A DNA stretch of 45,455 nucleotides, the filler included, from Jimgerdemannia flammicorona (taxonomy: Eukaryota): NCBI GenBank assembly GCA_003990765.1. It is 2 parts of 2 records of this genome, joined end to end, with 100 filler letters (N's around TTAATTAATTAA, not from the genome) between each part and the next. Parts side by side here need not be neighbours in the genome. Positions count along the whole stretch, not along the records: positions 22,782 to 45,455 come from RBNJ01001229.1; 1 more part is not named here. One strand, 5' to 3'. Below, piece after piece: positions 13,301-40,936 of this stretch. The notes under the pieces are model-generated. The model saw nothing but the letters and a program-made list of their open reading frames with translations. It searched no databases and had not been told where the DNA came from. The position numbers and the translations under genes are program-made. Every line of letters starts with the position of its first letter. Position 1 is the stretch's first letter.

Positions 13301-13523
13301 TGTTCTTGTCAGATGAGATCTTCTTGTTTTTTGATGGTCTGAGGAGCTTTCATTAGGGTGTAGTTCCTCAGGACACCCTTCTTCTGGTTTATTGGGGCTG
13401 GTGGAAAAGTATATCAACATTGTTGTGAGCTTTCTCTGCTTTGTGTATGATGGTGATTTTGTAATCCTGAAGGGTAAGGATCCAGCAGACTAGGATTCTG
13501 GTGGGTTCCTTGTAGTTGAATAG

Positions 13524-16899: not shown

Positions 16900-17280
16900 T
16901 GGTCACCTTAACTCTGTACTTCTTGCCTTGGTATTCAAACTTGAGTACTTGATGACCAATATCAACAACTGCATTCATTTCCTTCATCCAGTTGGTGCCA
17001 AGAATAATGTCATAGGTGACAGCTTCTGTGACAACAGCTTTGGGGATAGAGAACTGAATGTGTCCAAGAGAGATAGTGATGTTTCATACTTCTCCAAGGG
17101 GTTGAGTTTGGGCTCTATCTGCTACTATGATGCTGAGATTGTATAGTCCATCAATGGGCCATTGAAGGGTGTCCAGGAACTGTTTGGCAATGACACAGAT
17201 GGCTGCTCCTGTGTCAATGAGGATCTTTACCTTTTGTCCTCCAATATCTCTATATAGGTAGGTGCTGACATGTCTTTCAG
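16900..17280 (-). pseudogene. Retropepsin aspartic protease
   Basis: VKILIDTGAAICVI followed by YDIILGTNW. Confidence 0.9.
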
Positions 17281-17721
17281 CTGCTTCGACAGGGATGGGA
17301 GCTGGTTCTTGCTGTGGGATTGGGACTTGGCCAGTGCTAGACCTGGTAGTTCTCAACAATTTGTTTTGGACTCCAGCTGGTATCAGTTGCAGGAACTGCA
17401 GGAGAGGGACTTCTATCTTGGCCTCTTAGATCTTCTGCCAGGCTTCAGTGTAGATGTCTCTAGGCATAGTCTTTGGGATGTACATTTTCTTGAGCTTTGG
17501 GGCGACAGGTTGCTGTTCTTCTTGTTACATTTCTTTATCTTCTGGTGGCAACTCATTTGTCTCTGGGACAAAAGGTGAGGGAGTCCAGGGAGGTGTTTCT
17601 ACTTGTTCCTCCTCATGTTCTTCATCTTCTTCTTAGATGATTCTTCTGCTGACTACAGGTCTCTTCCTTTTCTCTGCTGGGTACACTATTTTTCAGGTGG
17701 TAACCTTAGTAGGGTACAAGT

Positions 17722-18922
17722 CTAAGTTACTGTAATCTTCACTGTTACTTGCTTCCTTGAAATCTTCAACAGGATGGGCTTCAGTTTTCTTATACTGAGT
17801 ATCATTCCTTTGGTTTGGTGGTTCTGAGTCCCTTCAGTTATTTCTTTTGTTGTCACATTCAGTAGCATAGTATCCAAATTGTCCACAATAGAAGCATTGG
17901 ACTTGGGCTCTGTCTCAGACAGAGCACCTTCTTTCTTCTTGCTGATAATTCCTGTTATCTCTTGGTGGATAACCTTGGCTCCTCTGTGGTGGGTATCCTT
18001 TGTTGTCTTGGTAGCCCTGATTTTCGCATGTGGTGAGTTTTTCAATCTGTCCAATCAACCAGTCCAACTTGGAGCTGAGGTCTTGGATTTCACTTCTGTC
18101 CTTCATTCCTTCCTTGACTGGCCTTCTTTCTTCAGATCTCTCTTGCCCTTGAAGGAGTCCTTGTAGGGCTTTAACCAGGATGTCTTCTTTATCTTCCTTC
18201 TTATCATGATCACTCCAGGTAGTTCCTTGTCTGACATCAAAGAATCCTTGGGCTGCATCTACTTGCTCTTTAGATCTTCTGATGCCTAGGGTGTGGATGT
18301 GCTGGGCAATATTTGGAGGAATTTCATTCATAAAGGTCATTGAACCTATGATGTCCTAGTTGGTGGCATTGAACTCTGCAGTATGCATTCTCTTCTGGAT
18401 TCTTGTGAAGAAAGCTCTGGGTGATTCTCTAATATTCATCTTCATCTCCATGATGGATTCTTGAGCCTTGTGGTGGGTTTTGTTTCCTGCATACTTTTCA
18501 ATGAGCCAGTGGACCATGGCCACATATTCTAGCTCATAAGATGCTGCTGCCTGTATCTGTCTTACCAATTTGGAATCAGGATTGTTTGCTGTTTGATGGA
18601 AAATTCCTCTGGCTGGTTCTCTGAGCTGAGCCTTGTAGATGGCGATTTTTCTTTTATCTGAGAGATTCCTCAGGGCTGCGATTCCTTCCATTCTGTCAAG
18701 GAATTCTATGGGGTCTTCCTCCGGGTATCCTGCAAAGGTTGGCAATGAGGTGGCCATTTCATCATCACTTACTTCTGATTCTGGTTTGTGTTTGGATTCT
18801 GATTCTGATTCACTTTCTGAACTATCACTGGAGATGAGGGTGGTTGGGTATCTTGAGGATAGTGTTTGGGACCTTGGATGAAGTGGAATAAGCTTAGTTA
18901 TTTTTGTAGGAGCTACTTCCAA
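17722..18922 (-). pseudogene. Gypsy gag with CCHC-type knuckle relic
   Basis: LPTFAGYPEEDPIEFL...ESPRAFFTRI, and CFYCGQFGYYATEC at ~17855-17900. Confidence 0.8.
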
Positions 18923-19297
18923 CTCTGCAAGGGGTTGTGGTAAAGGTTCTATTGGTGAGATTGATGGTACTGATATGGGGTGTCTGGCTGTAAGGTCTTG
19001 GGTTCATGTGATAAGATCTTCTAGTTCATGTACAAGTTCTTCAAAATCTCTAGCAGAGCTGCCTGTATTGTCTGATTGATCTGGTTGGGGATTTTGGGCT
19101 GTACTGCCTTCTGGTTCTAGTTGGGATCCTTCTGATGCTGGGTAGTTGGCAAGTCTTGATGTGATTACTTCTCTTCCTGTCCAAATGATGGTGATAACTG
19201 GTTCTCCTGTAGTAGCAGAGATTGGTGTTGTATCAAATGTATCCAGTTCGACTGTGGGTTCTTGTGAGCTGAAAAGTTATGTTGAAATTCTATTTGT

Positions 19298-19316: not shown

Positions 19317-20539
19317 TGTAATGTGCCTGGCTCAATAGAGGCAAATTACAAGGTTGGGAATTGATGTAGTTTGGCTTGAGCCCACAGTTACTTTGTTAAA
19401 AGCAACAAAATGTTCTTGGTATTTAGTGGTATAATAGTCAAGATCCAGATACTGTGCTAGCAGTTTCTTTTTGGGACAGGTTCTTGGGTGTAGCAGTAGT
19501 TTGTGTGAGCAGTTTTCTTCTTAGATGGCAGTCAATTTGTATGTAGTGCAAGCAGGTTCCTTATCCAGGTTGACTGGGAATGCTATGATTTTGTGTAGTG
19601 CTACAATCTCTGTGTAATGGTCTGGCAATTTAGCCGTTCTCCTTCTTGAGTGATGGGCGATCTCTGTATAGTGCCACAATCTCCAAAAGTATGCAATTTC
19701 TGACAGATGGCTCAATTTGGCATGGCTTCTCTGAAACTGTGGCTTACTGGAAATTATACTGGCAGTGGATAACTCAATTACTCAGGCTCACTGGGGACAA
19801 ATAACTCAGAGGTTGCAGAAACTCAGATGGTACAAATCAGGTTCTTCTGGGAATGTAGATAACTCAGAAATGATGGCTTCAACTGGAAATTAACTCAGAT
19901 AGTGCAGATTCTTTCTAAATCAGCGGCTTCAACTGGAAAATGGTGGCAAAGTTTTTCCTTGAACTTGGGTGGCAAATCTTCAGGTTTATCTGGCAAGCAA
20001 ACCAAAAACGGACTCATTCTTTGTATCGAAAAGTAGACCAGAGTGGAAAAAGGAAACCAATGCTCACAATCTCCTAGTAGTGGCTTTAGAGTGAGCATTT
20101 CTCCTAAGTGTTGCAATCCTTCCTGGATCAAGTGGCTTTTGGCAGGCTTATCCCTTGAAGTATAGTAGGCTGACTTGTCTTTTGCTTTTTGGATTCAATT
20201 TCGGACTCTTCTTTGTATTGGAAAGTGAACCAGAGTTGAAATGTGTTCGGAATTTCGGACTGAGGTTTATTCACTCTTATCTCTGGGGTATTTTATACAT
20301 TGTGGTTACTATCTGGTTGCTATCTGGCTAACTATAGATTTGCTATTTTTGGGTGGACAGCCAATGTCTCGTGGACAGTCACTGTCCAGAGAATAGCCAC
20401 TGTTCATATTATCCCCTTTTCCAGCTATCTGGTCATTCATACATTTTTCCACAGCAATGGTTGCTGGTTACTATGCTATGCTAATGTTCACATCACCCAG
20501 TTTGGTTTTGAGGTTGCTACATTTTTGTAGTTTATCATA
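19317..20539 (-). repeat. 5' LTR (family B)
   Basis: Direct repeat of 10562-11784. Confidence 0.95.
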
Positions 20540-22554
20540 GTATTAGTAATCTATTTATTAGACTACTTCAGATTATTCTTTTGAGGCTTAATTTGCCAAA
20601 ATGTCCCAATTGTTGAAGCCATATATTGAATATAGTTATTATATATATATATAGAGATATTCATACTATTCCTATTCAACATACTATTGATATTTAAAGA
20701 TTACTATATTTTGAGATTGTCATTAGCTCATTTTTATCCAAATTATATACAGTTATATACTTTGAGTAAATATATATCTCTTTATTACTATGGGACATCA
20801 TTTTGCTGATCAAAAAGTAGTTTTTACTAATTTCTAAGATATATAGTATATATATCAAAAAAGATACTATCAGGTTCTATAATATTACTATAGAGATGTA
20901 TCTTTATATTTTCTTATCCTTAAGTATAGATAATGTTGTTATCTCCTCGTTTGATATGTATAGAGTATTTAAAAGACTCATATATAGAAAACTATTCTCT
21001 ATATAGTATCATATATTATATGGCTCCAGAATCTATTAGCCAGATATTGTTATCATTGGCTATGTTTGTAGTATATTTTCTGCTGGTAGTACTAAGTGAA
21101 AAGAATTTTGCTACTGACCAGAATTCATAGATTATAGATTGGAAGATGACAGATTGGTAAATTTGATAGTAGTAGAACTACTCATTGATCTCATACTGAT
21201 AGAACTAGTAGGAATATAGTTATCTATATGTATTGTTTGCATGAAATACATATTACTATTGTCATCTATTTTAGTAATGTTTATATTATCACACTTCTCT
21301 TTACCTCAATAATTCTTTCCACATCTATACTGGATTTTTCTGTACTTATTTTCATTACTCTCTTTGTTATTTTCTCAGTGATAGCAATTGTACTTCCTAT
21401 ATCTCTACTTGCAACAATATTCACTATAACTATTATACTTGGTTAATTGACTGGACTGATTATTGAATTTATTTTGGATTTGGGTTCATCAGTCTTATTT
21501 CCTATGTTTTTGACTATTTTTGTAACTACTATCTATCTACAGAATTCTAGAAGATATTTTTATCATCATTGCTACCATTTTCTAGACACTTTTCCTTATT
21601 TATGAGGCTCATTATTATGTCAGTATAGTTCATAAGTCTGCTGCTATTATGACAACAACATTATATATACTAGAAGATCTCTTATAAGTAATATAATCTT
21701 ATTATCATTGCCAATACAATTTGCAGATATGTCAAGAGAATTTACTTAATTCACCAGATTGTTAATATAACTGGTGTATTTGTGAAAACTCTTCTTAGAT
21801 TTCATTTATATATTAAATAGCTGAGATTTCAGATAGAATCAATTTAATGCAAATACTTATAAGTAAAAATTATAAGAGTCTCTCAAACATTGTATGCCAT
21901 TATAGCATACATTATAAGCTTTGTTTGCAAATTTGATAATGTGAATATAATCTTGTATAATGCTTAGTAAATGTTTATAGCATCATAATCTTGAACAGTG
22001 CTTATGGTTTCATATACTCAGCTAAGTCATATTTGTCAAGGAGATTTAATATATAGAATGTCCAAATGGTATAATTTTTCCCATTGAAGATTAGGATGGA
22101 TCTCTTGACTGTATTTACACTTTCAACTAGGACTGTGTTTTCTGTATTTATTGAGGTTACATCTATAGGAATACTCATGATTAATATATCCATATTACTG
22201 TGTATATTGCTAGATGGATCATCTGATATTTCTATCACAGTGTATATTAAAGAGATATATTCTTTACTATAGCCACTTCATACTAGTGGGACTTATAATC
22301 TTTGTTATAATTAGGAGTGATTTTATTGAAGTTATATAGGTTGTATATTTGATATATTACTGATAAATGATGTAAAACTGATGGAATAGTATAAGTCAGA
22401 TGCTAATATATCAAGTTACTATTCCAACAGTAGTCTTAAATTAAGAGGCTGAGAGTAGTCTTAATTTGTATGACCAGATAGCTTAAATTGTAGAAAACTT
22501 TATATATTTACTATCTTGATTTAAGACCATCTGACTTTTAGATTTTATAGCTAT

Positions 22555-22681
22555 TGTAACGTGCCGGCTCAATGGAGGCAAATTACAAGGTTGGGGGTTG
22601 ATGTAGTTTGGCTTGAGCTCCCAGTTACTTTGTTAAAAGCAACAAAATGTTCTTGGTGTTTAGCGGTATAATAGTCAAGAT
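22555..22681 (-). repeat. Edge of a further family-B LTR, cut by the gap
   Basis: Matches 10562-10688 and retains more CpGs. Preceded by CTAT. Confidence 0.9.
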
Positions 22682-22781
22682 NNNNNNNNNNNNNNNNNNN
22701 NNNNNNNNNNNNNNNNNNNNNNNNNTTAATTAATTAANNNNNNNNNNNNNNNNNNNNNNNNNNNNNNNNNNNNNNNNNNNN
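22682..22781. other. Artificial gap/contig linker
   Basis: 44 N + TTAATTAATTAA (stops in all six frames) + 44 N. Confidence 0.98.
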
Positions 22782-23059
22782 CTCAAAAAGGGTTTAATAC
22801 TGGCAATTAAAGATAAGAATGAGTTAAAACAAGACCTAGTCCTCAGATAAATATAACTACTCACCCCAAAGGCTTTTAAGAAGACTTATAAGGAAGAACA
22901 GAAGATCCTCTCTCACCAACCTTTGGAGATCTTTATAATTGAAGACAATAATAACAGTATCTATACTATCATATGGGCCCTCTAGATCACTCTATCTATC
23001 TATAAAAAATATTGAAAAAGGTATCCAATAAGTAAGGAAATCAACATGGCCTTTCACCA

Positions 23060-23455: not shown

Positions 23456-25901
23456 CCCCCTCACCTGCTGGCCTTTACTCCATACCCAGTCTATTCCCTA
23501 TTACTACCCAAAAGTCCCCCAACATCTTGCACTCTCAGCCAGTGTTCTGGCATCTGCACCAGACCCCCAGCTCACCCTATATTGTAACACTCCTTACAAT
23601 CAAAACGGCCACCTTCTACTAGATGCCCAGTGTAGAAATTCAACATGACATTCCTCCGCAACATTTGCCACCATACTACCCAGAACTTGGGAGGAAGCTG
23701 TCTTCACACCTCAGCAGTCCATGACCAGATACCAGCCCAGTCCCACTTGCCAATCCCTACTGCCTGCCAGCCACTTGGCCAAAGATCTTGGCCCAGCCCC
23801 TGCTGACACTCTACTCTCTCCCCAATGTCAAATGTAGCAAGTAGAGCACCCCCCATGAGCAGTCTATCCCAACACCACATATTAGGCCCCCACATCACTT
23901 TCTCCTCATTGCTTTGCCAGCATAGGCTAATTTGGTGTGCTCCATCTACCACTCCCCACCAAAAGCCCTTGAACCATAGCTGCTGATTTCCATTCAGCCC
24001 CACCAGAGAGAGCAGATCTCCAGAGGACCCTCGAGGGGAGGTGCTCATCTCTCACACCTTCTGCAGCAGAGGCACCCAACCTCCACCCTGTAGTTCCACA
24101 GCTCTCTTCAACCACCAGACTCACAAGCAGTGCAGCCTCTTAGGGAAATCTACAAGGCCAAGACCTCCCCTGACCACTGGTCTCGCAAGAGTATTCCAAC
24201 TGACCTGAGATCTCCTCCTAGCCCAAATCCAATCTCTAGCCACCTTTGTCAGCCTCTTCACTATCTATGCTGGGAAGTTGAGTTGATAGGCCATGTACCA
24301 CAGCTTGGGGAACCAGTATATATTCAGAATTGATACCCACCCTGCTAGAGAGATATGGCAGCCTCCCCAACCTCGAAGGGCCCCCCCAAATGGCCACCCT
24401 GCTCTCCCACCACACTTGTGGCAAGACAGAACCATAAACAGAAAGGAAGATATCCAGATACTGCACCACCTCACTAGTAGGGACAATTGTTCCAATGACA
24501 TCTCCACCCACTAGCCTATTCTCTAGCACTATTGTCTCATACTTATGCCAGTTGAGCTTTGCCCCAGAGTGAGCCTTATACCACTCCACTGTCTCCTTAA
24601 GTGCCTCTACATCTGCCACAGACCCAAGTCCAACCACCATGTCATCAGCAAAGGCCCCCACCTTCCACACTATACTATATATAGAGAGCCCTACCACCTT
24701 TCGGTGAATCCTATCCATCAATGGCTCCAGCAAAAGAGCATAGAGAATAGGGGACAGAGGGTCCCCCTGAGGAACTCCTCTTCCCAAGGAAAATGCCCTC
24801 CTATAGTATTCATTATACATCAGCACTGCCTGACTACTTTCTAGTAGATTCAATATAGAGGCCCTAAATCTTGATAGAATACCAATTCAGTCCAACACCT
24901 TGCCCAGCCAAACCCACCATATATGGTCATAGACCTTCTCTTGGTCCAAAAAGACCAACCTTCCATCCAGTCCACAGACCTGGGCCCCTTCAATGACACC
25001 ATATACCCATGCAGTCCCATCTCTTATAAGTCTGCCCCCAACAAAGTCCCACTGCTCCTCCCCCAGCACCTGTTGGGCAACTTTCTGTAGCCTTGTGACA
25101 ATTACCTTAGTCACCATCTTTCTGTCTATATCCAGAAGCATGATTGGTCTCCAGTTCTTCCAGTCTTCCCTCCTCCCCTTGTCTTTGTACAATAAGGCTA
25201 CCAGCCCAAGGTCCTGCTCTCCAACCCACTCACCACTCTGAAGAATATGGTCACAGAGAGCAGCCATCTCACCCAAAACTCCAGGGACCTATACCATCTT
25301 CTTCCAGAAGTCCCATAGCAATCCATCCTCCCCTGGCACCATCCCAAGTTTAGTTGCTGCCAGGATACTCTGGATCTCCTCTCCTTGCACTGGTAAGATC
25401 AAGTCAAGGAGGAAGAAGGCCCAGCGGGAGCCAAGGGAGCGAACCCAGAGCCAGTATCAAAGCAAATGGAAGACATGTGGAAAAGTGTGTATAAGGGGGA
25501 TAAATAAAGAACATAACCAAAAATACATCAGCCATTTATTACCATGTAAAAACGTGGTCCTTATATACAAAATACAACGTCCCAAAAGGGAGGATGCACC
25601 ACAACTTGGAGCAAACTGGATTAGGAACCATATGACTGCTGGAGATAGGCAGAGATAAAGGGGGAGCCAATCCCAGTTGCAGGATAAAAATCACAAACAA
25701 ACACAAACAAAACAAATCCAAATCGAGATTAAAAAACATCCACAGACCCCAGAGAGGTGAGCATGAGTGAGGGGTGAGACCAAAATGGAGCGAGCTGCAG
25801 TGAGCCCAAGCAAAGTGAGGGGCCGAAGGCAGTGGAGGGGAGTGGAGTAAGGCTGAGACCCTGGAGTGAGCACGAGACCCCGGAGGGGGCAAGGATGTTT
25901 T

Positions 25902-27959
25902 TTAATCCTCTCCAGCAGAGCTGGAGGCACCAGAAGGTAACAAAAACACAAAACGAGAGCGATGGATTAAAGAAGAAATGGAAGGAAGATGCGAATGAGC
26001 AATCAGAGGGCATCGAGAAAGAGATGAAAGTCTATGGTATGAAAGAGAAGAGTGCAGGACAGTATCAGGGCATTGAGCAACCCAGCAAGCATGATCAAAT
26101 AGTATAACAAGAATCGGGGGTGGGAAAGAAGAGGGGGTACAGAGAGAGTAAGGGGGGAGGGAGGGAAGGGAGGGGGAGTAAAGAGGAGAGAGTAGGGAAG
26201 AGCAAACAACAGACCATTCAACAGAAGCAAGCAGATCATGAATGATAGAAATAGGGTAGGCACAATGATGGACCACGAAGTTGCCAAGAACCTGAACAGC
26301 AGACACCCAGTCAGAATGACAGGAGTAGCAAAGTGCAAGATGACAAACCTCACCATGAATACATTCAAGAAGAGTATGACGAGGATGATTGGACAAGAAG
26401 TCAGGGAACTGTTGGGAATGGGGAAAATGAGAATAAACAATAGTTTGGAAGGGAGAAAGAGAAATGGAAAGATCCAAAAAGGGAATACTAGTTATACTGC
26501 ACACCCAGTTAATAGAATGGTGGAGAGGATAGATGCCCAGAAACACACTAGGGATATCAATACCAGCAATAGCAAAGACAATAAAGTTATCAATATATCG
26601 GTGAAAGAAGATATCTCCAGCCCAGAATGTAATGGAAAGAGGTGAAGTAATATCACGTAATGCATGCAATTCATGGGACAGGCCAACAAGGTTGGCAAGG
26701 GTGGGGGTACAATTCATTTCCATAGCAATACCAGAAATCTGATGAAAGGAGCCAAGGGCTGACTCAAAATAAATAGAGTCACAGATGAGAAGCATGAGCT
26801 CTATAATGGAAGCCAGTGAAACTGGGGAATCCAAAGGAAAAACAATGGAGCCCAAGAAGCGAAGGCAAGCATCAATCTCATCAAAACGAATAGCAGTATA
26901 AAAGGAGGAGAAATCACCAGAGGCCAAATGGGAAAAACAGTGAACAGGTACAATGGTGGAGCAGAGAAGGGCGAGCTCCTGAGTATCACAAAGAATGGTA
27001 TACTCAGGTCCAAGACAGTGTTGTAAAAGAGCCATCCAGGAGAGAAAGAAGCAGGATAACCACTTCGAAATCTCAGTAGTAGGAGAACTGTAAGCAGCCA
27101 TAATGGGATGCCAAGCCAGAGTAGGCTTGTGAACTTTAGGAAGAGCATAGAAAACTGGAAGAGAAATATCCAGGGAGGATAAAGAGTCCTGGAAGAAGTT
27201 AAAAATGGGGTTTGCGAATAGGGAATCCAAAAGCGATCTGGCGTGAGCCAGAGAAACCCGAAGAAGAGTAAGAATCTCATCCAATCCAAGAGCACTAGGC
27301 TTGTAAGCCATGGCTCGAAGGAGGGCAGAAAGGCCATCAAGGTAGAGCAACTTAGGAATAAGTGCAAAACCCTGATTCTTATCAGTGACTGTGAGCAAAT
27401 GCATAGGCAATTGCTTGACTGATTTAAGTGCGGTACACACGGCACGGTCCAAAACCAAGCAAGAGCAAGCATGTCCAGGAATGGACAGCGAATAAGCCAT
27501 GTTGAGGAATATGCAGTATGAAGAGACATTGAAAGGGGGGACCCAATTGCTAGGAACAAAATAGTGAGAGGGCATCTTACCACAATCTTGAAAGAAAATG
27601 GCAAGGTCAAGAGCATGATGAAAACATGTGAGACGAGCCAGATTAGTGAAGGAGAATTGTAAGAGAGTCACAGGAAAAACAAAGCAAGGACCCAAGGATA
27701 AGGCAAAGACTTGAAGGGGAGAAAGGGGACAGTCAGCTGAAGAAAAAGGAGGAGACAAAAGAGTTCCAAGAGAAGAATAAACCTGAAAGTTTGGGACAAG
27801 CAACTGGGAAAGGCGAAGGGGGGACAATATGAGGAACCACTCAGGGCACACCAGAAGTGACAATGGAATCCGAGAAGGGATGGGGACACTGGGGGAGAAC
27901 TATACCGGGGGGAAGTTTAAGAGCAGGAGGCCTTCCCCTTCCCTCTGACTTTTTTTGAA
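25902..27959 (-). pseudogene. PLE reverse transcriptase (left copy)
   Basis: DKNQG, YALPKVHK...HPI, GDFSSFYTAI, QISGIAM, RYIDN (catalytic DD decayed), IPFLDL, SNHP. No GIY-YIG before the stop. Confidence 0.9.
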
Positions 27960-29132
27960 GGCGGCAAGTCTGACGAATGGGAGCACACCCCGTCAGAGTG
28001 CCAGACCTTGTGGCCACAGGCTTTCGTGCAGCCCTTACATTCAGGGGTATGGGTGGAGGAGGCAGAGGAGGAACTGGTGGAGGAGGCTGAAGGCAAGCAA
28101 GCAGCCGAAGGGGCAGCAGTATGAGGAACATCACCATGAGGACAGATGGACTTGGCCAGGTGCCAGTAGGCATGGTGGAGGCGACTGGAGCAGACAGTGC
28201 AAGGCCAGGCTCTGACAGGGTGAGAACCAAGTTGGCGGCCATGCTTGGGGGCAGGGGAAATGGAGGAAGAAGCCTTGGTGGGGGAGGGGGACCAGGAAGA
28301 GGCTGACGAAGCCTGATTGGGCTTGGCAGGGGTCTTGGCGGGGGTCTTGGAGGGGGCCTTGGTAGCGGCAGCAGTGAAGGAATGAACCTCAGCATGAGCA
28401 GCAGCACGAGCTTCGGTATGAATGGCCTTGGAGACTGAAACCTCAGGGAGGAAGGCAGGGAAGCAGTGGTGGTGGCACAAGCAGTGGTGGCAGCACATGA
28501 CATCTCCTGCTCATGAAGGCAAGCAACAAAGGAGGTGCTGGCAAGGAGGAAACGATGCACAGCATCGATGTCGGTGGCGACAGAAGGAACATCTTAGATG
28601 GCGAAGCCATAGAAGGGGGCGGCATCCAAAAGACAAGAGGAGGTGAAGGCCATGAAGGCAGCACAGGTATGGTGGAAGGAGGTAGAGACAGTAGCGGCAG
28701 AAGCAGTGGTGGCATCAGTAGCGGCAAGTTTGGTGGTAGCAGTAGCAGCACAAACCTCTTTAGAGAGGGCTTGGTGGCGGGCCTCAGGGAGAATGGAGTA
28801 GCAGATGATGGGTGGAGTGATGACATTGATGTCATGGTGGAGATGAGCCTCCTTGGCGGAGAGGGTAGAACCAACCAGAATTGGGAGAGGAGCAGATGAC
28901 CAGAGGGACAAAGGTCCAAGGGGAGGGAAAGGATGGCAGATGAGATATAAGTCTCAAACGAGACAGTAGTGGGGGTGAAGGTGGGGGGAGAGAGAGAAGG
29001 AAGCTCCTCATCCATGAGCTCGTCGATAAGGACAGAGACCCCGAGAGTAGGTGATATAGTAGAGAAGGAAAAAGGCCCAGCAGGAGCCAAGGGAGCGAAC
29101 CCAGAGCCAGTGTCAAAGTGAATAGAAGACAA
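27917..29132 (-). pseudogene. PLE ORF1 (left copy, frameshifted by decay)
   Basis: Pieces in ORFs 28443..29144, 28594..28911, 27841..28560 and 27917..28498. Ala/Ser/Pro-rich with a Cys/His C-terminus. Confidence 0.7.
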
Positions 29133-29382
29133 GTGGAAAAGCATATATAAGGGAGATGAACAAAGAATGTAACCGAAAATGCATCAGCCATTTATTGCCA
29201 CGTAAAAACATGGTCCTTATATACAAAATACAACATCCCAAAAGGGAGGATGCACCACAACTTGAGGTGAACCGAATTAGGAACCACATGACCACCAGAG
29301 ATAGATGGAGATAAAGGGGGAGCCAATCCCAGTTACAGGATAAAAATCACAAACAAACACAAACAAAACAAATCCAAATCGA

Positions 29383-29563
29383 GATTAAAAAACATCCTTG
29401 CCCCCTCCAGGGTCTTGCGCTTGCTCTGGGGTCTTGGCCTTACTCCGCTCCCCTCTGCTGCCTTTGGCCCCTTGCTTTGCTCGGGCTCACTGTGGCTTGC
29501 TCCATTTCGGCCTCACCCCTCACTCACACTCACCCCTCTGGGGTCTGCAGATGTTTTTTAATC
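29383..29563. repeat. 15-bp inverted repeat enclosing a 151-nt GC-rich spacer (also at 25727-25907 and 33041-33221)
   Basis: GATTAAAAAACATCC...GGATGTTTTTTAATC is perfect in both terminal copies, with one transition in the central copy. Confidence 0.92.
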
Positions 29564-29720
29564 TCGATTTGAATTTGTTTTGTTTGTATTTGTTTGTGAT
29601 TTTTATCCTGCAACTGGGATTGGCTCCCCCTTTATCTCTGCCTATCTCCAGCGGTTATGTAGTTCCTAATTCAGTTCACCTCAAGTTGTGGTGCATCCTC
29701 CCTTTTGGGATGTCATATTT

Positions 29721-29755
29721 TATATATAAGGACCGCATTTTTACGTGGCAATAAA
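29721..29755 (+). promoter_or_regulatory. TATA-like box and AATAAA in the PLE terminal repeat
   Basis: TATATAAG and AATAAA upstream of the ORF1 start, conserved in all four repeat copies. Confidence 0.4.
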
Positions 29756-29813
29756 TGGCTGATACATTTTCAGTTACGTTCTTTGTTCATCCCCCTTATA
29801 CATGCTTTTCCAC

Positions 29814-31031
29814 ATATCTTCTGTTCGCTTTGACACTGGCTCTGGGTTTGCTCTCTTGGCTCCTGCTGGGCCTTCTTCCTCTTCTGCTGTACTGCCTGCC
29901 CTTGGGGCCTCTGTCCTCATCAACAAGCTCATGGATGAGGAGCTTCCTCCTCCCCCTCCCCCTGCCTTCACTCCCGCCACTGTCTTGTTTGAGACTTACA
30001 TCTCATCTGCCATCCTTTCCCTCCCCTTGGACCTTCATCCCTCTAGTCATCTGCTCCTCTCTCAATTCCGGTCAGTTCTTGCCCTCTCCACCAAGGAGGC
30101 TCATCTCTACTGTGATGTTGACATCATCACTCTGCCTGCTGTCCACTACTCTGTTCTCCCTGAGGCCTGCCGCCAAGCCCTCTCTGAAGAGGTTTGTGCC
30201 GCCACTGCTGCTGTCAAACTTGCTGCTGCTGATGCCGCCACTGCTTCTGTCACTGCTGCCTCCACCTCCTTCCACTGTACCTGTACTGCCTTCATGGCCT
30301 TCACCTCCTCTCACCTTTCAGATACTGCCCTCTTCTGTGGCTTTACCATCTAAGACATTCCTTCTGTTGCCACCAACATCGATGCTGTGTGTTGTTTCCT
30401 CCTCGCTGGCACCTCCTTTGTTGCTCACCTTCATGAGCAGGAGATGTCACATGCTGCCGCCACTGCTTGTGCTGCTGCCACTGCTCCCCTGCCTTCCTCC
30501 CCTGAGGTTTTGGTCTCTGAGGCCATTCATGCCAAAGCTCATACTGCTGCTCATACTAAGGTTTGTTCCTTCACTGCTGCTGCCATCAAGGTCCTCTCCA
30601 AGACCCCTGCCAAGACCCCCGCTAAGCCCAATTAGGCTTCGTCAGTCTCTTCCTGGTCCCCCTCCCCTGCCAAGGCTTCTTTCTCTATTCCCCCTGCCCC
30701 CAAGCATGGCCGCCAACTTGGTTCTCGCCCTGTCAGGGCCTGGCCTTGTGCTGTCTGCTCCAGTCGCCTCCACTGTGCCTACTGGCACCTGGCCAAGTCC
30801 ATCTATCCTCATGGTAGTGTTCCTCGCACTGCTGCCCCTTCGGCTGCTTGCTCGCCTTCGGCCTCCTCTGCCAGTTCCTCCTCTGCCTCCTCCACCCATG
30901 CCCCTGAATATAAGGGCTGCATGAAAGCCTGTGGCTGCAAGGTCTGGTACTCTGATGGGGTGTGCTCCTGTTCATCGGGCTTGCTACCTTCAAAAAAAGT
31001 CAGAGGGAAGGGGAAGGCCTCCCACTCTTAA
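29814..31031 (+). pseudogene. PLE ORF1 (~405 aa, right copy)
   Basis: Start is ATA here but ATG in the terminal-repeat copies (33472). In-frame pieces 29802..30353 and 30387..30635. Ends ...PSKKVRGKGKASHS-stop. Confidence 0.7.
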
Positions 31032-33046
31032 ACTTCCCCCTGGCATGGTTCTCCCCCAGTGTCTCTGTCCCTTCTCAGATTCTGTCATCACTTCTGGTGT
31101 GCCCTGAGTGGTTCCTCATATTGTCCCCCCTTCATCTTTCCCAGTTGCTTATCCCAAACTTTTGGGTTTATTCTTCTCTTGGAACTCTTTTGTCTCCTCC
31201 TTTTTCTTTGGCTGACTGCCCCCTTTCTCTCCTTCAAGTCTTTGCCTTATCCTTGGGTCCTCACTTTGTTTTTCCTGCAACTCCCTCACAATTCTCCTTC
31301 ACTGATCCAGCTCATCTCACACATTTTTGTCATGCTCTTGACCTTGCCATTTTCTTTCAAGATCATGGTGAGATACCCTCTCGCTATTTTGTTCCTAGCA
31401 ATTGGGTCCCCCCTCCCAATTTCTCTTCACACTGTGTATTCCTCGACATGGCTTGTTTGCTGTCCATTCCAGGATGTGCTTGCTCTTGCTTGGTTTCAGA
31501 CTGTGCTGTGCATACCATGCTTAAATCGGTCAAGAAATTTCCTATGCATTTGCTCACAGTCACTGATAAGAATCAGGGTTTTGCACTTATTCCTAAGTCA
31601 CTCTACCTTGATGGCCTTTCTGCCCTCCTTTGAGCCATGGCTTATGAGCCTAGTGCTCTTAGATTGGATGAGATTCTTACTCTTCTTCAGGTTTCTCTGG
31701 CTCGTGCCAGATCGCTTTTGAATTCCCCATTCGCGAACCCCATTTTTAACTTCTTCCAGGACTCTTTATCCTCTCTGGATATTTCTCTTCTGGTTTTCTA
31801 TGCTCTTCCTAAAGTTCACAAGCCTACTCTGGCTTGGCATCCCATTATGGCTGCTTATAGTTCTCCTACCACCGAGATTTCGAAGTGGTTATCTCGCTTC
31901 TTTCTCTTCTAGATGGCTCTCTTACAACACTATCTTGGGCCTGAGTATACTATTCTTTGTGATACTCAGGAGCTTGCCCTTCTCTGCTCCACCATTGTGC
32001 CTGTTCACTGTTTTTCCCATTTGGCCTCTGGTGATTTCTCCTCCTTTTATACTGCTATTTGTTTTGATGAGATCAATGCTTGCCTTCACTTCTTGGGCTT
32101 CATTGTTTTTTCTTTAGATTCCCCAGTTTCACTGACTTCCATCATAGAGCTCATGCTCCTCATCTGCAGCTCTAATTATTTTGAGTTGGCCCCTGGCTCC
32201 TTTCATCAGATTTCTGGTATTGCTATGGGAACGAATTGTGCCCCCACCCTTACCAACCTTGTTGGCCTGGCCCATGAATTGCATGTGTTATATGATATTA
32301 CTTCACCTCTTTCCATTGTGTTCTGGGCTGGGGATATCTTCTTTCGCCAATATATTGATGACTTTATTGTCTTTGCTGTTGCTGGTATTAATATTCCTAG
32401 TGTGTTCCTGGGCATCTACCCTCTCTACCATTCTATTAACTGGGTGTGCAGTATGACTAGTATTCCCTTTTTAGACCTTTCCATTTCTCTTTCTCCCTTC
32501 CGAACTGTTGTTTATTTCTGTTTTCCCCATTCCCAACAGTTCCCTGACTTCTTGTCCAATTATCCTCATTGTACTCTTCTTGAATACATTCATGGTGAGG
32601 CTCATCATCTTGCACTTTGCTGCTCCCATCATTCTGACTGGGTGTCTGCTGTTCGGGTTCTTGGCAACTTCATGGCCCATCATTGTGCCTACCCTATTTC
32701 TATTATTCGTGATCTGCTTGCTTCTGTTGAATGGTCTGTTGTTCACTCTTCCCTACTCTCTCCTCTTTACCCCCCCTCCCTTCCCTCCCTCCCCCCTTAC
32801 CCTCTCTATACCCCCTCTTCTTTTCCACCCTCGATTCTTGTTGTACCATTTGATTGTGCTTGCTGGGTTACTCAATGCCCTGATACCATCCTGCGCTTTT
32901 CTCTTTCATGCCATGGACTTTCATCTCTTTCTCAATGCCCTCTGATTGCTCATTCGCATCTTCCTTCCATTTCTTCTTTAATCCATCACTCTCATTTTGT
33001 ATTTTCATCACCTTCTGGTGCCTCTGGCTCTGCTGGAGAGGATTAA
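30989..33046 (+). pseudogene. PLE reverse transcriptase (right copy)
   Basis: In-frame ORFs 30962..31633, 31637..31912 and 31913..33046 are separated by single stops. GIAMGTNCAP, YIDD, PFLDL. Confidence 0.9.
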
Positions 33047-36000
33047 AAAACATCCTTGCCCCCTTCGGGGTCTTGCACTTGCTCCAGGGTCTTGGTCTTA
33101 CTCTGCTCCCCTCTGCTGCCTTCAGCCCCTCACTTCGCTCGGGCTTGCTGTGGCTCACTCCATTTTGGCCTCACCCCTCGCTCACACTCACCCCTCTGGG
33201 GTCTGTGGATGTTTTTTAATCTTGATTTGGATTTGTTTTGTTTGTGTTTATTTGTGATTTTAATCCTACAACTAGGATTGGCTCCCCCTTTATCTCTGCC
33301 TATCTCCAGCAGTCATGTGGTTCCTAATTCGGTTTGCCCCGAGTTGTGGCATGTCCTCCCTTTTGGGACATCGTATTTTGTATATAAGGACTGCGTTTTT
33401 ACATGGCAATAAACAGCTGATGCATTTTCAGTTACATTCTTTGTTCATCCCCCTTATACATACTTTTCCACATGTCTTCTATTCACTTTGACACTGGCTC
33501 TGAGTTCACTCCCTTGGCTCCTGCTGGGCCTTCTTCCTCCTCTCCAGCTACTTGTGGTGGCCCCCACTCTTCTAGTGTATCTGCAATTGCCTCCTCATCA
33601 GCACCTCCTTCTCCCTCACTTCACAAACCCTGCCATCTCTCCTTCAAAACCCCTAAGATTTGTTGTGTACTATGCACCATATCCCCATTGGCATCCAGGA
33701 CCCCATCCCACCAATGTTGCACTCTCCTAGCTTTGAGAAGTCTTGATAAGTACCTAGTAGGCCACTCACTCTCCTCAAGCCCCTGCTACCATAGCCTAGT
33801 AGCCATTCCCCACATATGTGTCTCCTCCTCTTCTCCCAACATCTGTTGTAGTTCCACTATCTCTAATTTCACCCTCTCTATTCTCCAATCCTCCACCCCA
33901 TCAGCAGTGAGCAAATCTGCCCACTCTATTTGTAGTCTCCTCAGCCTGCTGGAAGCACATCCCATGTGCCTCCTCCTCCTCCTCCCAGCCTCTCTACTAG
34001 TAAACTCTTACAGCCTCTTTCAATCTCATCCAATAGACATCTACAGGCAAACCCTCATGCCTCTAGATAGAAACCTTCGCCTGAATGTCCTCTATCCATG
34101 ATTTCCACAACTCCTTCACAGCCAGTAGGGAGAAGTTAAGACACCAATGTCTGGGTCCATCTCCACTCCCCCCAAACTGCCCCTGCTCCAACAGTCTCCA
34201 GTGATCAGACCACAGGTACCACTCCACCTCCAATGCCTTCCAAACATCTGAACCCCAGCACTCTGCCATCAGAATTCAGTCAATTCTTGTGCCCAAGCCA
34301 TTCATCCAATGTGTGTAGACCCTGGCATCACCCCACAGTGTTCTGCCCATATCCCCTAAGAAGCTCAATATCTCCACTCCTCCCAAGCATCCAGACCTCT
34401 ACTTCTCCTCCCTGCACTTCTCCCTCCATCAGTTCTGTCCAGATGCTGATCCCAAACCATATTAAAGTCCCCACTGAGAACATTGACCCCTTTCTCCAAG
34501 AGAATACCTTCCTCCAGCAGCTCCCTAATCCACACAGTCCTCTCACCCCTAGCTGCGGGGCAGTAGCAAGAGCCCACCTTCACTGATTCCCACCCTGGCC
34601 AATGCCAATCTCCCCAGACCAAGTGATCACCCCAGCTCCAGATTCCCCCCAAGTCCCCTCTGCCCTTTCTCATCAGAATTGCCACTTTCCCAAACCAAGT
34701 AGTAGCCCCACCCCATTCCCTAGTCCACTCAACTCAATCATCCTCATCCTTATACTGAACATCCTATAGTAAAAAGAGATCAGCCTCCAATCCCTTGAGC
34801 CAAGTAAAAATATTCGTACACTGCCCAGAGCCCCTCAACCTATTTACATTTAAAGAGAAAATATTAGTTGTACTGTTCATAAAAAATAATGATATATCAC
34901 AATTCCATCCTCTACAAGTCCACATTTGGCTCCTCCTACACCAAGTCCAAGTCATGTTCAGCAGCTAGTTCCCTTTCTCTAGCTTCCTGTACCTCCAACT
35001 CTCTCAGAAGTTCCACCATTGCCCCATCTTCCCACTCCTCAAAGTTCTCATGATACTCCAGACAGGCCTCCTGCCAGAGCTGCAGACCATGATGCTCTGC
35101 CCAACAGTAGACCACCTGCTCACCAGTGACCACCACCAGCTCTGCCTTCCTCACCTTATCAACCTCATATCCCTCCTCCTTCAGGAAAATTGTGTGAATC
35201 TCCACCTTCAGTGTCTCTATCACCCCATCACCATACAGAATCTGTGCCCAATGCTCCTCAGGTATTGCCTGCAGGTCCACTTCCCCCAAAGCCTCTGCTG
35301 CGAGGTTATCCATCACCTTGCTCATCCACAGCAAGTTCCCTACCTCCTTCCCTCCTGGAGTCCCCAGCCACCCTGCATCCAACATCATGGTGTCAGCTCC
35401 TATACTGGCAGCCTCATTCCACTCCTCCTCAGGGACATCCACCAGCTCATCCTCACCAACCACCACCACCTGGCCCCCTTTCGCCATATCAGGGACCCCA
35501 AAGTACACTCGCTGGGCCCCCTGCATCAGTACATCCTCCATCACCCCTCTCTTTCCAGCTGGGCCCCTCCTGATAAGTGGGGGGGGGGGTGGTATCCAAC
35601 TCCTGCTCCCATACTTCAAGGGTACCATTAGCATATAGATTCCTGTCCTGCATCTTCCCAGCCCCTGCCTCATTTGCCACTACCTCCTCTCCTCCTTTAC
35701 TAGCCCAGACACTGGCTTTGATGCCTCCAGACTCCTCAGCTCCAACCAACTTCTCTTTCACCCCTCCTGTCATATTCGCCAAAAGCTCCCTCTGCCTCTT
35801 ACATCTCTGGGCCCATTCCCACTGCTTCCTATCAGTATGGATATACTTCCCATCCACAACCTCCAGATGTGTGGACTCCTCATACAGCTTCCAGGCCTTC
35901 ACCCTCCTCTCTACAGCACCACTCAACTCCTCCAGTGCCTCCAACAAGTCCTCCTCCTCCTCTTCACTCCTTTTTACCCTCGATACCTTACAGATGAAGG

Positions 36001-37039
36001 CCCCCCACATCAGCACTGATGGCCAGTCACTTGTCTTCCCTGTGGCCTCCTTCCCCACCAAACGAATTCTGACATTGACATCACCTGTCCTGAATGTCAT
36101 CCCCTCCCACAACTGAAAGCCTATGTCCACTATATCACCATATTCAACCATCACCTCCTCCACCCTCCTCCTAGTCTCCTCCTTAGTCACCATGGGCACC
36201 CCCCTCACCAGAAGCTGCACCACCCTGGGGTCTCACCTCAAGCATCTCACCATGGGGACCACTATCTCACCAACTACCACTCTAGTCTTCATAGCCTCGT
36301 TCAGTAGGCCTATCTCCTCAAAGCCCACCTCAACCCCCTCTAGGCCCTTCAAGAACTTCACCAAGGCCACCCCAGCCACCTGCTTCAAAATAAGCCCCAG
36401 GACCATCCTCACCATCACTGCTAAGCCCCGGAAGTACAAGGTAGCTGCAAACTCCGAGATTGACTTTTTGAGCAATAGGGCCACCACTAGTCCCATTACA
36501 CCATTGGTCAGGTCTCCCTTCTGCTTCAGGAACCCCTGCCCTCTCTGGCCATCAGCTATCACATCTCTTTTTTTTTCCTGATTCACCATCATACCACCAT
36601 CAGCAGTCCCACTACTACCCCCAGTAGCTACTCCACTACCTCCACCTCCCACCAGTAAAGGTCCAGCTCCCCCAGCATTCCTAGCCTTCTGCTTCCCCTT
36701 CCCATCTGCCTGTTCTCTATGGGCTCCTATTGGCCATCCCCCAGTCTGCAGTGTGTCCACAAAGCTCCTTCCCTGCTGCCCTTCTGCCCCCCCACCAGTG
36801 CCTCCTCCACTGCTCGAGCTGCCCTGCCCACTTGAGCCACCAAAAGACCCCATCCCCAGTCCATACCCTCTCCCAACATACTGCCAGTCAAAGGCCCCAG
36901 GTCTGCCCAATCTAGTATACACATCAGCTTGCCTGCTGGTTGACATTGTCTTATTATCTTTCTCCAATAAACGAGTTGAAAGTATGTTATAAAGTGTGTA
37001 TAATATGAATTATAGTGGAGAAAGATGTATCTGAGCATC

Positions 37040-38021
37040 ATTAACTATATTGAAGTCCTATTCTCTAAAGAAGAAAAATAATTTCTAGAATAGAGTAATT
37101 CTGATATAAAAGATAATAATAGCATAGGTATAAATATAGAAAATATTTATAAATATCAGAATGATGACTAAAGAATAGTCTAAAACAGATTATCCTTTAG
37201 TGGGGGCTGATGTAATAAGCAAATACTATAGTATAGTCAGATGATATATAAAGAATACTTAGTATAGTTATTCCATATAGTTATTATATATACTATCAAT
37301 TTATATAAATAATTAAATTTATCAAATCAGAGTATACTAACTCCTGAAGAAATACTTGTTTTAAGTAGAATACTCATCTTATATAGAATACTTATTCTGT
37401 ATAGAATCAAATAGTCATACCTTTTTTAAATTAATACTACTGTATATTCTATAATTATTCAAATAATAATTAGATAGCAATCAAACTTATATAAAATACT
37501 TCAGAGATTTAAGTAAATAAACCTCAGTCTGAAAAATCAAAGAAAAAGCAAAAGACAAGTCTGTCTATAATATACTTTGAGAGATATATCTACTAAGAGC
37601 CATTTGATCTAAGAAAAGAATTACAATACTTAGAAGAAATATCTACTCTAAAACCACTATTAAGAAGACTGTAAGCTTTATTCTCTTTTCTACTTTAGTC
37701 TACTTTCTGATATAAAGAAGTCTGCTATTTTTTTATAAAGCCAGAAGAATATAAGAGATCTGCTTTTTTGGTCTACTTGTCAGACAAAGTCTGAAGAACT
37801 TAGCCACTATTTAGAGAAGTCTGCCAAATTGTGCATTATGCAGAATCTGCACCTATTAAGAAAATTACCAAAATTGTCCACATTATACAAACAAGAGAAC
37901 TCATACTTTTAGAAATCAACTGAACATTTTGTCACTTTTTGACAAAGTAACTAGGGGCTCAAGCCAATCTACATAGCCACCCCAATCTTATAATCTGCCT
38001 CTATTGAGCTAGTACATTACA
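37040..38021 (+). mobile_element. Decayed gypsy 3' end: PPT and family-B-related LTR (37211-38021)
   Basis: tcctttagtgggggctga PPT, then an LTR ending ctattgagctagtacattaca, matching the reverse complement of LTR B. Confidence 0.8.
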
Positions 38022-39214: not shown

Positions 39215-40936
39215 TAGTTATACTGAATAATACCAGCACTGGTATTTGATGTAACACTGAATAATGCCAGCACCAGTATTTGATGTAACACTGAATAATT
39301 CCAGTACTGGTATTTAATATAATACTGAATAATACCAGTACCAGTATTCTGATGTAACATTGAATTATACCAGCATCTTGAACCTATACAACCATCAGTG
39401 CTAACTCTGGAACTTAGCAGTTTTTCCTGTCCTGGCATTTTATTTTAGTTATTGGAAGTTATATTTAGCTTTATATCTTAGCAACCATTGAATTATATTT
39501 TGTATAAATACCTCTCTTATTTCCTCTGAAATAATGTCAGTCAAGTTCACTTATACACACTTTCTTGCAAGCAATCTAAGAGATAACAAGATAGTTAAAG
39601 ATAAGAAGTTTGAGGACTATAAGACTTTGGGAAGGCACTCCAATAAGAACTTGCTTATAACAAACTTGAGTTAGTCTAAGAGATATACCTTGAAGAGAAT
39701 CTGGCATATTTGAAGGACTCAGTGACCACTACATAACAACTTGGTGCCCATTGGCTGGTAATTCAAGACAAATCCCTCACTTTCAAGCTGAAAAATGAAC
39801 AACCCCCACAATAACTATCTTGACTACAAGAGTCTGCAAGAATTCAAGACAAGATAGAAATATACCCCCCCACATTCTATGGATATATTACTGAAGAGTC
39901 AATCCTGACCTTCATTGAAGACTTTGAACAATTTGCTGTCATAAAAGCCCTTGGTGTGGATACACAATTGGCCCTTCTACCAGTCAGTCTCAGAGGACCT
40001 ACCAGAGATAAGTTTGCAGCCACTATTGCTGATAATGGTGCAGCCAAACTTGCCAACATAAAGGCCTTCCTCAGAACAACATATTATACTGAAGAAATCA
40101 AGTAAGCTCTCAAGGATCAACTCAATACTATCTGCCAGAGACTTAGTGAAGATCCCAACTTATTCTATACCTGAATCTGCCACCAGATTGTCTTGGCTAG
40201 CTATGATGATGCCCTCAAGGAACAAATAGTGGATTCAACCTTCCTCAAAGGAGTTCACTCTGAAATTGCCCTAGCAATCCAGTCTACCCCAGCTGCACTG
40301 ACCCTTGATCAGAAAGTAGTCTTTGCACAGAGATATTGGCCTGTCAGACACCCTGCTGAACACTCAATAGAGAAAATAACTGGTATCAAGATGGAGCCAT
40401 CAAAGCCAACCAGCATTATATCTACCACAGTTGTAAACAGACAACCATTCCCACCTACCCCCAAGACAGCCAAAGCTGACCCAGTAGAAGAACTTGCCAA
40501 GCAGTTCACCAAGATGACTGCACACCTTGGTGATATTGTTAGAGAAGTCTGAAGTGCTAACAGGAGACCAGTGCAGAGATTTGCAGCTACTACAGAAGAA
40601 TACAATATCATATGCTTCAGATGTGGAGAAGAAGGCCACTATGCAAAGAACTGCATGACCAAAACAAGATACAAAGCCCAACCAAGCAATGTTAGCAAAA
40701 CTAGAGAACAAACCAATGCAGTAGTTATTGAGGAGATTAGTGATACTGATGATGAAGAATACTATGAGGAGCTCAAATTCTACCCTACTACTGAAGGTAC
40801 CAGAACCTGGTCCAAGCCCTATGACAGGAAGAGCAACAGCAAGCCAGTTGGAAGACCAAAGAAGACCCCAGCTGTTACTATTCAAAGCAAGACTCAATCC
40901 AAGGAGATTGATCAAGACATGGAGTTAGATGAAGCT
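39215..40936 (+). mobile_element. Gypsy 5' part: LTR (~39215-39738), PBS (39742-39754), gag
   Basis: LTR ends ACATAACA, followed by TGGTGCCCATTGG. Gag with CFRCGEEGHYAKNC knuckle. Interrupted by LINE copy C. Confidence 0.85.
39221..39376. repeat. ~4.5 tandem copies of a 34-35-bp unit with an internal palindrome
   Basis: Unit yactgaataataccagyacyrgtatttgatgtaa. Confidence 0.9.

Follow-up and report, generated by a model that had tools for sequence, protein, structure and literature searches.

A head-to-head dimer of a Penelope-like element with no detectable endonuclease, joined at an inverted repeat of its own 3′ untranslated region, in Jimgerdemannia flammicorona

Introduction

In Penelope-like elements (PLEs), a typical insertion consists of an inverted 5′-truncated copy beside a longer copy (PMC8557442). 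The closest described parallel to the locus reported here is the endonuclease-bearing (EN-bearing) Penelope of the rotifer Adineta vaga, which is organized as pLTR-ORF-pLTR (where pLTR stands for pseudo-long terminal repeat and ORF for open reading frame), with an adjacent inverted pLTR overlapping the direct one by 15 bp (PMC3846280). The available sections of the same work describe palindromes of 18 and 38 bp at the 5′ ends of the pLTRs, name head-to-head as the commonest arrangement and infer self-priming (PMC3846280). Here we describe a head-to-head dimer of a PLE with no detectable endonuclease in a 45,455-nt stretch of DNA (the window), composed of two joined parts of the Jimgerdemannia flammicorona assembly GCA_003990765.1.

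The origin of tandem and inverted PLE structures is an open question. Fungal and protist endonuclease-less (EN-less) PLEs are said, in the accessible text of PMC3846280, not to share this organization, and the endonuclease is regarded as very likely to determine it (PMC3846280, PMC8557442, in the parts available). The telomeric Coprina of an ascomycete has direct repeats, and the available portion of its description mentions no inverted dimer (PMC13159263); the accessible part of PMC9977147 contains nothing on inverted PLE structures. A search of the literature accessible to us found no report of head-to-head or inverted EN-less PLEs.

Results

Overall architecture of the dimer

The dimer was read from the assembled sequence alone. 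A search for inverted and direct repeats over 24000–35000 reveals two reverse-complement arms, 25407–29397 and 29549–33543, flanking 151 nt at 29398–29548. This interrupted inverted repeat is built from three pairs of segments (25407–28448/30500–33541, 28446–28865/30082–30501, and 28867–29396/29550–30079). Global alignment of 25407–29397 with the reverse complement of 29549–33543 gives 89.0% identity with 3553 matches; the 438 aligned positions that differ comprise 430 transitions and 8 transversions, and there are 4 gap columns.

Each arm also contains a family of direct repeats, with a spacing of 3656 nt in arm A (25407–25741, again at 29061–29397) and 3658 nt in arm B (33041–33543, again at 29383–29885). 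The direct repeats of both arms are pLTRs arising from partial tandem duplication. Arm B, which would represent a complementary DNA (cDNA), measures 4161 nt, and the two arms overlap by exactly 15 nt (29383–29397), a segment corresponding to an inverted repeat (IR) of the element. A BLAST comparison of arm B with the window matches only the two arms and their internal repeats, with no further copy in the 45 kb.

The reverse transcriptase (RT) frames of arm A (25902–27899) and arm B (30956–33046) represent the same gene and diverge from the centre. Since they run outward, the junction is 5′-to-5′ and both outer ends of the dimer are 3′ ends. A first-pass annotation of this DNA had proposed a head-to-head PLE dimer, with these two arms around a 151-nt spacer, joined at an IR built into the element. 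The repeat search recovers the same arms, the global alignment bears out their complementarity, and the diverging RT genes, together with the position of the switch between arms, confirm the head-to-head arrangement.

The inverted repeat at the junction

Alignment of the four terminal copies defines, in the 3′ untranslated region (UTR) of the element, an IR with arms of 15 nt, GATTAAAAAACATCC and GGATGTTTTTTAATC, separated by 151 nt. Both native 3′ UTR copies hold this IR pair and a loop of 151 nt (25727–25741/25893–25907 in arm A and 33041–33055/33207–33221 in arm B). At the centre of the dimer, the sequence switches from one arm to the other exactly on this IR, at 29383–29397 and its complement 29549–29563, as the first-pass annotation had stated. 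The central copies, GATTAAAAAACATCC and AGATGTTTTTTAATC, match today at 14 of 15 positions, after one G>A change. The 151 nt between them had been taken for a spacer; the coordinates hold, but the segment is the loop of the element's own 3′ UTR IR, present in a single copy in the orientation of arm B and contiguous with that arm. The 5′ end of arm B is the first base of the distal IR arm, while the 5′ end of arm A is the proximal IR arm.

Among perfect IRs with loops of at most 400 nt, none other in the 3658-nt unit is as long as this one of 15 bp, and none of 200 dinucleotide shuffles of the unit reaches that length. The last codon and stop of the RT gene (GAT TAA) fall within the distal IR arm in both native copies (25893–25907 and 33041–33055), so that the 503-nt pLTR corresponds exactly to the 3′ UTR. 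In the predicted fold of the 181-nt antisense 3′ terminus, the last 15 nt lie in the closing stem, with the minimum-free-energy and centroid structures in agreement (ΔG, the folding free energy, −27.2; z-score −3.37), and none of 200 shuffles folds as well. An equivalent stem is predicted for the sense RNA (z-score −2.07, 10/200 shuffles).

Insertion into a LINE

Both outer ends of the dimer read ...GGGCCTTCTTCCTCCT and agree within ~2 nt, also when compared with the internal unit boundary. They are flanked by two parts of a long interspersed nuclear element (LINE), whose second copy in the window, at 40936–45309, matches both flanks collinearly with 68–71% identity. In the coordinates of that copy, index 261 is the last position of the left flank, and the right flank begins at 262–269; the target was thus cut at one point, with a loss of 0–5 nt. 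Two further elements of the first-pass annotation are borne out by these comparisons, namely that the outer ends stop within ~2 nt of the same element position, which is the 3′ terminus in both cases, and that the flanks are the two halves of one LINE.

Comparison of the flanks with the second LINE copy reveals no target-site duplication (TSD) at the dimer/LINE junctions, and no 30–40-bp ‘tail’ is seen at the element/target junctions. Overlap between element and target is at most 1 nt at the left junction, whereas the right junction possibly shares a CTCC-like run with the element end, an uncertain assignment given the diverged reference.

The arrangement of the flanks bears on a fold-back duplication at the DNA level, in which a break or a replication template switch at the IR would have followed a single insertion. 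Short IRs seed large palindromes at breaks, and the position of the junction at the IR is compatible with such an event. Such a duplicate would extend beyond the 3′ end of the element and carry the right-hand LINE flank in inverted form; instead, arm A stops at the 3′ base of the element and the LINE is collinear on the left, and we regard this explanation as very unlikely.

Three pieces or copies of the LINE family are present in the window (368–1387, 23504–25406 with 33544–37037, and 40936–45309), with a mutual identity of 68–75%. The sense strand of the two copies measured contains 36–38% G and 14% C, with a GC skew near 0.5.

Mutation spectrum and probable original identity of the arms

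Taking the C-bearing copy as ancestral, 266 of the 430 transitions between the arms lie at CpA. The share of sites changed amounts to 51% for CpA, 24% for CpG, 8.6% for CpC and 2.5% for CpT. Changes are spread equally over the arms (213 and 217) and evenly over C>T and G>A, and the distribution over the 5′ neighbour is flat (99, 117, 107, and 107). A polarized spectrum is provided by the 337 nt that occur four times in the dimer, where singletons comprise 44 C>T or G>A changes versus 11 in the reverse direction, 26 of the 44 being at CpA. Compared with arm A, both internal stops in the RT frame of arm B reflect transitions (CGA to TGA and TGG to TAG).

A CpA-biased C-to-T pattern is that of repeat-induced point mutation (RIP) as in Neurospora. 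On the pairwise and polarized spectra, the decay process is RIP-like; we use this term instead of RIP because the arms do not show the high TpA/ApT and low (CpA+TpG)/(ApC+GpT) of the classic composite indices (0.62 and 1.65–1.78, respectively). On this pattern, a fungal host is probable. Editing of the cDNA by an APOBEC-type enzyme was considered and rejected, as the bias concerns the 3′ neighbour (CpA), none is seen for the 5′ neighbour, and both strands are equally changed.

Between the transposons of the window lie AT-rich blocks with 26–32% GC (2001–3000, 20001–23000, and 37001–38000). TpA/ApT is 1.0–1.1 in these blocks versus 0.6–0.75 in the transposons.

The four pLTR copies show pairwise identities of 88–90% in all six comparisons, and each copy carries 13–16 singleton changes. 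This star-like divergence indicates a simultaneous origin, and both arms and all four pLTR copies were probably identical when the structure formed. The first-pass annotation had likewise noted that the differences between arms are mostly transitions, consistent with identity at insertion; the transitions (430/438) support this, with original identity as the probable state. The 2:2 site patterns among the four pLTR copies (7 vs 3 vs 3) do not separate the models of origin.

These data are relevant to a history of two separate insertions, with arm B inserted first and a copy in the opposite orientation later inserted exactly at the 5′ junction of B. EN-less PLEs are presumed to insert at exposed DNA ends (PMC8557442 and PMC13159263, in the parts available), and a palindrome-prone junction might break repeatedly. 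However, the second break would have had to fall exactly at the LINE/B junction, with the LINE contiguous to 0–5 nt, and the overlap of the two 5′ ends coincides with the IR. Divergence is also equal among the four pLTR copies, with near-equal singletons, and the arms differ by only 8 transversions and 4 gap columns. We regard two insertions as very unlikely.

Tandem and inverted PLE structures are reported to trouble assemblies (PMC8557442, available part), and a chimeric palindromic read, or a false join through the shared pLTR, could in principle have produced the locus. A read folded on itself is ruled out by the 11% divergence of the arms, with its 438 aligned differences and 4 gap columns. 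For a false join, two LINE copies would each have had to receive an independent insertion at one and the same base, in opposite orientations, whereas the flanks are collinear parts of one LINE. An artefact of assembly is in our judgement highly improbable.

Reverse transcriptase and search for an endonuclease

The RT ORFs match no Pfam family even at E ≤ 10, a word-based homologue search with the RT ORF returned nothing, and a sequence search of the PDB gave no match at E ≤ 10. A phmmer search yields 1244 matches at E ≤ 0.001. The best (P0001) shows 47% identity over 400 residues with an E-value of 1e-96, and the aligned motifs are TDKN, LPKVHK, GIAMGTN, and RYIDD. Among the matches are proteins that combine an RT with a GIY-YIG domain, such as P0021, which places the element in the Penelope-like superfamily; GIY-YIG was detected behind the RT in 5 of the 98 matches scanned with Pfam.

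A GIY-YIG profile built from these five matches detects 24 of 163 proteins; it was also rebuilt from all its domain matches. In the six frames of 25301–33650, this profile found no GIY-YIG endonuclease (best score 1.9 bits, E 0.067), while a control RT profile built without the window sequence recognizes the two arms with E-values of 6e-99 and 2e-94. Upstream ORF pieces match no Pfam family.

A tree of 142 RT cores over 365 columns was calculated with FastTree after removal of proteins shorter than 350 aa and of those matched over fewer than 250 columns, P0001 being one of the proteins removed. The RT of the dimer is placed as sister to a protein of Racocetra fulgida, its nearest named relative (support 0.78), in a clade of 16 tips (support 0.917) inside a clade of 25 tips that contains none of the 16 EN-bearing tips of the tree. 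On a contig of 4.6 kb, the 622-aa ORF of P0002 opens with a start methionine and ends ~100 residues past the RT without an endonuclease. Named matches among distant PLE clusters are Racocetra and Stenamoeba, and an atlas search returned only generic, rotifer-rich RT clusters. By its RT type, its lack of a detectable GIY-YIG domain and its position in an EN-less clade, the element is classified as an EN-less PLE, in support of the first-pass annotation.

Upstream of the RT, arm B contains a possible ORF1, for which no homologue was found (29755–30924); on so pyrimidine-rich a strand, its open frame may be due to chance. Pyrimidines make up 67% of the PLE sense strand (25407–33543; A 15%, C 31%, G 17%, and T 36%), on which chance open frames are expected, so that the long open frames, of 665 codons for the RT and 389 for ORF1, say little about integrity. 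Loss of purines on this strand cannot arise from transitions. K, R, E, D, N, and G are scarce in the encoded protein, and its 47%-identical relative P0001 has an ordinary composition. Within 29721–29757, and also in the other pLTR copies, a TATATATAAGG run lies ~26 nt before the ATG of the putative ORF1, and an AATAAA overlaps that ATG.

The first-pass annotation had compared the element with Athena and Coprina, of which 3′ telomeric repeats and a hammerhead are hallmarks; both were looked for and neither was found. No hammerhead family of Rfam is detected at E ≤ 1 over 24000–35000 or at E ≤ 10 over 32950–33600, nor does Rfam give any other credible family; a former hammerhead motif may be hidden by transition decay. 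Reverse-complement telomeric repeats are absent from the 3′ end of the element, which reads ...GGGCCTTCTTCCTCCT. With TTAGGG as the telomeric motif, no dimer of it with at most one mismatch occurs anywhere in the 45-kb window.

Comparison with other PLE loci

We compared the dimer with 75 PLE loci from metagenomes (L001–L075), all 21–35% identical to it and none of them a member of this family. Direct repeats of at least 80 nt are present in 36 loci and inverted repeats of at least 80 nt in 6. Many of the direct repeats are exact contig-end overlaps of 99–127 nt, as tandem PLE arrays assemble, and one locus (L043) has tandem units of 3196 nt. GIY-YIG is detectable in 15 of the 75. An IR after the RT stop that beats all 30 mononucleotide shuffles was found in 8 of 40 EN-less and 1 of 11 EN-bearing loci.

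In a few distant EN-less loci, an IR closely follows the RT stop or spans it, with 43 bp at the contig end in L073 (~1902–2012), 17 bp in L075 (13–72 nt past the stop), 14 bp in L041 (81–178 nt past the stop), and 11 bp overlapping the stop in L063 and L064. These may represent further inverted junctions or 3′ UTR hairpins.

Features of the window

Table 1. Features of the dimer and its flanks, in coordinates of the window
Feature	Coordinates	Strand	Description
Left flank, RT part of interrupted LINE	23504..25406	-	RVT_1 at 24236-24886, E 1.9e-11
Arm A	25407..29397	-	PLE, 3656-nt unit + 337-nt partial tandem repeat; 3′ end 25407, 5′ end 29397
Arm A 3′ UTR / 3′ pLTR	25407..25907	-	Native IR pair 25727-25741, 25893-25907
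Arm A RT frame	25902..27899	-	665 codons without stop; stop codon 25902-25904; DKN, LPKVHK, GIAM(G/E)xN, YID(D/N) motifs
Arm A 5′ pLTR, 337 nt	29061..29397	-	Stops at proximal IR arm
Arm B	29383..33543	+	PLE, 3658-nt unit + 503-nt partial tandem repeat; 5′ end 29383, 3′ end 33543
Arm B 5′ pLTR, 503 nt	29383..29885	+	Entire 3′ UTR, from last codon on
Central IR, left arm GATTAAAAAACATCC	29383..29397		Common to 5′ ends of arms A and B
Central 151-nt segment (first-pass ‘spacer’)	29398..29548	+	IR loop, single copy, arm B (sense) orientation, contiguous with arm B
Central IR, right arm AGATGTTTTTTAATC	29549..29563		One G>A change vs native copies
Possible ORF1, arm B	29755..30924	+	389 codons, ATG inside pLTR
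Arm B RT frame	30956..33046	+	Same frame throughout; two internal stops, TGA 31631, TAG 31910
Arm B 3′ UTR / 3′ pLTR	33041..33543	+	Native IR pair 33041-33055, 33207-33221
Right flank, upstream part of same LINE	33544..37037	-	Collinear with second LINE copy at 40936-43820

The window also contains, on the minus strand at 13000–19000, a remnant of a Ty3/gypsy-type LTR retrotransposon with a protease-like LIDTGAA and RT/RNase H at 13524–14063. Its best relative is unnamed and 70% identical; the best named relatives are from Rhizopus delemar (46–48%) and a frog (42%).

Discussion

Four features point to one endonuclease-independent event at a break: the junctions of 3′ terminus and target, the lack of a TSD, the near-zero loss of target and the lack of an endonuclease. 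Between two antisense cDNAs, or between the halves of a single one, the IR is the sole complementary segment, and a junction at the IR is therefore expected. We tentatively favour a single endonuclease-independent retrotransposition at a double-strand break in the LINE, with the cDNA joined via the IR by snap-back. The anatomy, the IR, the lack of a TSD and of an endonuclease, and the mutation spectrum are observed; the break, the order of the steps and the intramolecular pairing are the parts of this account that we infer.

In such an event, the 3′ end of the element RNA would pair with the right-hand break end, and the RT would make an antisense cDNA longer than one unit, the 4161 nt of arm B. 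This cDNA would take in the upstream 3′ UTR copy as far as the distal arm of the 15-nt IR. Its 3′ end could then fold onto the proximal IR arm, forming a 15-bp stem with a 151-nt loop, and the folded end would prime DNA-templated synthesis back to the 5′ end of the cDNA, giving arm A. End-joining would connect the snap-back end to the left break end, and fill-in of the complementary strand would follow. A later RIP-like process acting on both strands of the repeated DNA, with C-to-T changes at CpA, would have brought the arms to their present 11% difference.

The same anatomy could result, again in a single IR-mediated event without endonuclease, from priming at both break ends, where two 3′-OHs would prime on separate RNAs, the cDNAs would anneal distal-to-proximal IR, flaps would be trimmed and gaps filled. 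Both outer junctions do join the 3′ end to the target with no TSD, two antisense cDNAs, otherwise alike, share no substantial complementarity apart from the IR, and a cDNA need not end there. The protein of an EN-bearing PLE cleaves and extends both target strands in vitro and is predicted to form a dimer (PMC11167929, available part), and the unequal arms of the usual PLE layout are better explained by two cDNAs (accessible parts of PMC8557442 and PMC3846280). On the other hand, two independent cDNAs of ~4 kb or more would be required in a class known for heavy 5′ truncation, and both would have to be primed independently at one base to within 2 nt, with scant left-side homology. We consider priming from both ends possible though somewhat unlikely. 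Snap-back is preferred because a single full-length reverse transcription suffices in a class prone to 5′ truncation, because equal arms and identical outer ends are predicted, and because the loop is continuous with the arm that may show priming homology at its 3′ junction.

Several observations weigh against snap-back at the IR. Two cDNAs annealing through the IR give the same structure, and snap-back would require some cause, such as an RNA 5′ end, that halts or trims the cDNA at this point. The asymmetry in microhomology between the left and right junctions is weak, as it depends on a LINE copy of 68–71% identity. In 51 of the distant loci, an IR behind the RT stop is not a general feature, and one of at least 12 bp occurs in 4 of 40 EN-less and 2 of 11 EN-bearing loci. 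The family is represented by a single copy in the window (n = 1), and the locus is known from the assembly alone.

The first-pass annotation had named both routes, snap-back and two cDNAs annealed at the IR. Both fit the anatomy, which does not choose between them. It went too far in calling the route programmed and the dimer the integrated form, claims that one copy cannot carry. A stronger version of the snap-back account, in which the IR is a built-in second-strand primer and the hairpin dimer the normal cDNA product, integrated at chromosome breaks, appears to us unlikely. If true, it would define a hairpin-replicating retroelement and would trace all tandem and inverted PLE architecture to the RT and the ends of the RNA rather than to the GIY-YIG endonuclease.

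A TSD-free head-to-head dimer in an EN-less element argues that RT and cDNA ends suffice for this organization. Its legible junction, with a 15-bp IR and a 151-nt loop, is well suited to testing snap-back against priming from both ends. As a single decayed copy, the locus is a lead and not a demonstration.

Related processes are known outside PLEs. In twin priming of L1, the second target 3′-OH primes cDNA, giving inverted segments in which part of one copy is inverted without duplication, and endonuclease-independent L1 insertions at breaks have no TSDs and small deletions. Inverted segments and the absence of a TSD are shared with the dimer; L1-type twin priming itself was rejected, as both arms hold a full unit and a 3′ terminus. 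In the parvovirus rolling hairpin and in classical snap-back cDNA cloning, a 3′ hairpin primes copying of the same strand to give a duplex dimer. The likeness to parvoviruses is an analogy only and does not extend to replication cycles, terminal resolution, or flip/flop isomers, none of which is evident here.

With Coprina and Athena, the element shares an RT-only protein of ~620–665 aa with the DKN motif, the lack of an endonuclease, apparent insertion at exposed ends, and a fungal nearest named relative; direct terminal repeats are also reported for Coprina-1_Alen (PMC8557442 and PMC13159263, in the parts available). Unlike Coprina and Athena, the element lies inside a LINE, in a 45-kb window without telomeric repeats, has no hammerhead that we could detect and forms an inverted dimer. 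A hammerhead in the pLTR is reported for all PLE groups except Naiad and most Chlamys, and none was found in this element.

The closest likeness is to the EN-bearing Penelope/Poseidon type (Pen2a_Av), with its partial tandem pLTRs, inverted copy on the 5′ side, pLTR overlap of ~15 bp and palindrome at the junction. This lessens the novelty of the first-pass proposal; the architecture and the self-priming idea are already in print for the rotifer EN-bearing Penelope, as the available text of PMC3846280 makes clear, and for priming from both sides, extension of two strands has been demonstrated in vitro with an EN-bearing PLE (PMC11167929, accessible part). EN-bearing PLEs (Penelope/Poseidon, Neptune, Nematis, and Naiad/Chlamys) carry a GIY-YIG domain at the C- or N-terminus. 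In contrast to Penelope/Poseidon, no GIY-YIG domain, TSD, 30–40-bp ‘tail’ or hammerhead motif was found here. Both arms exceed one unit in length, whereas one short 5′-truncated copy is present there, and a 15-bp IR with a 151-nt loop takes the place of a contiguous palindrome, in a host with RIP-like mutation. What is new in this one copy is the occurrence of the arrangement in an EN-less lineage, at a TSD-free site that appears non-telomeric within the 45-kb window, with two arms of more than full length and a long-loop IR lying over the stop codon.

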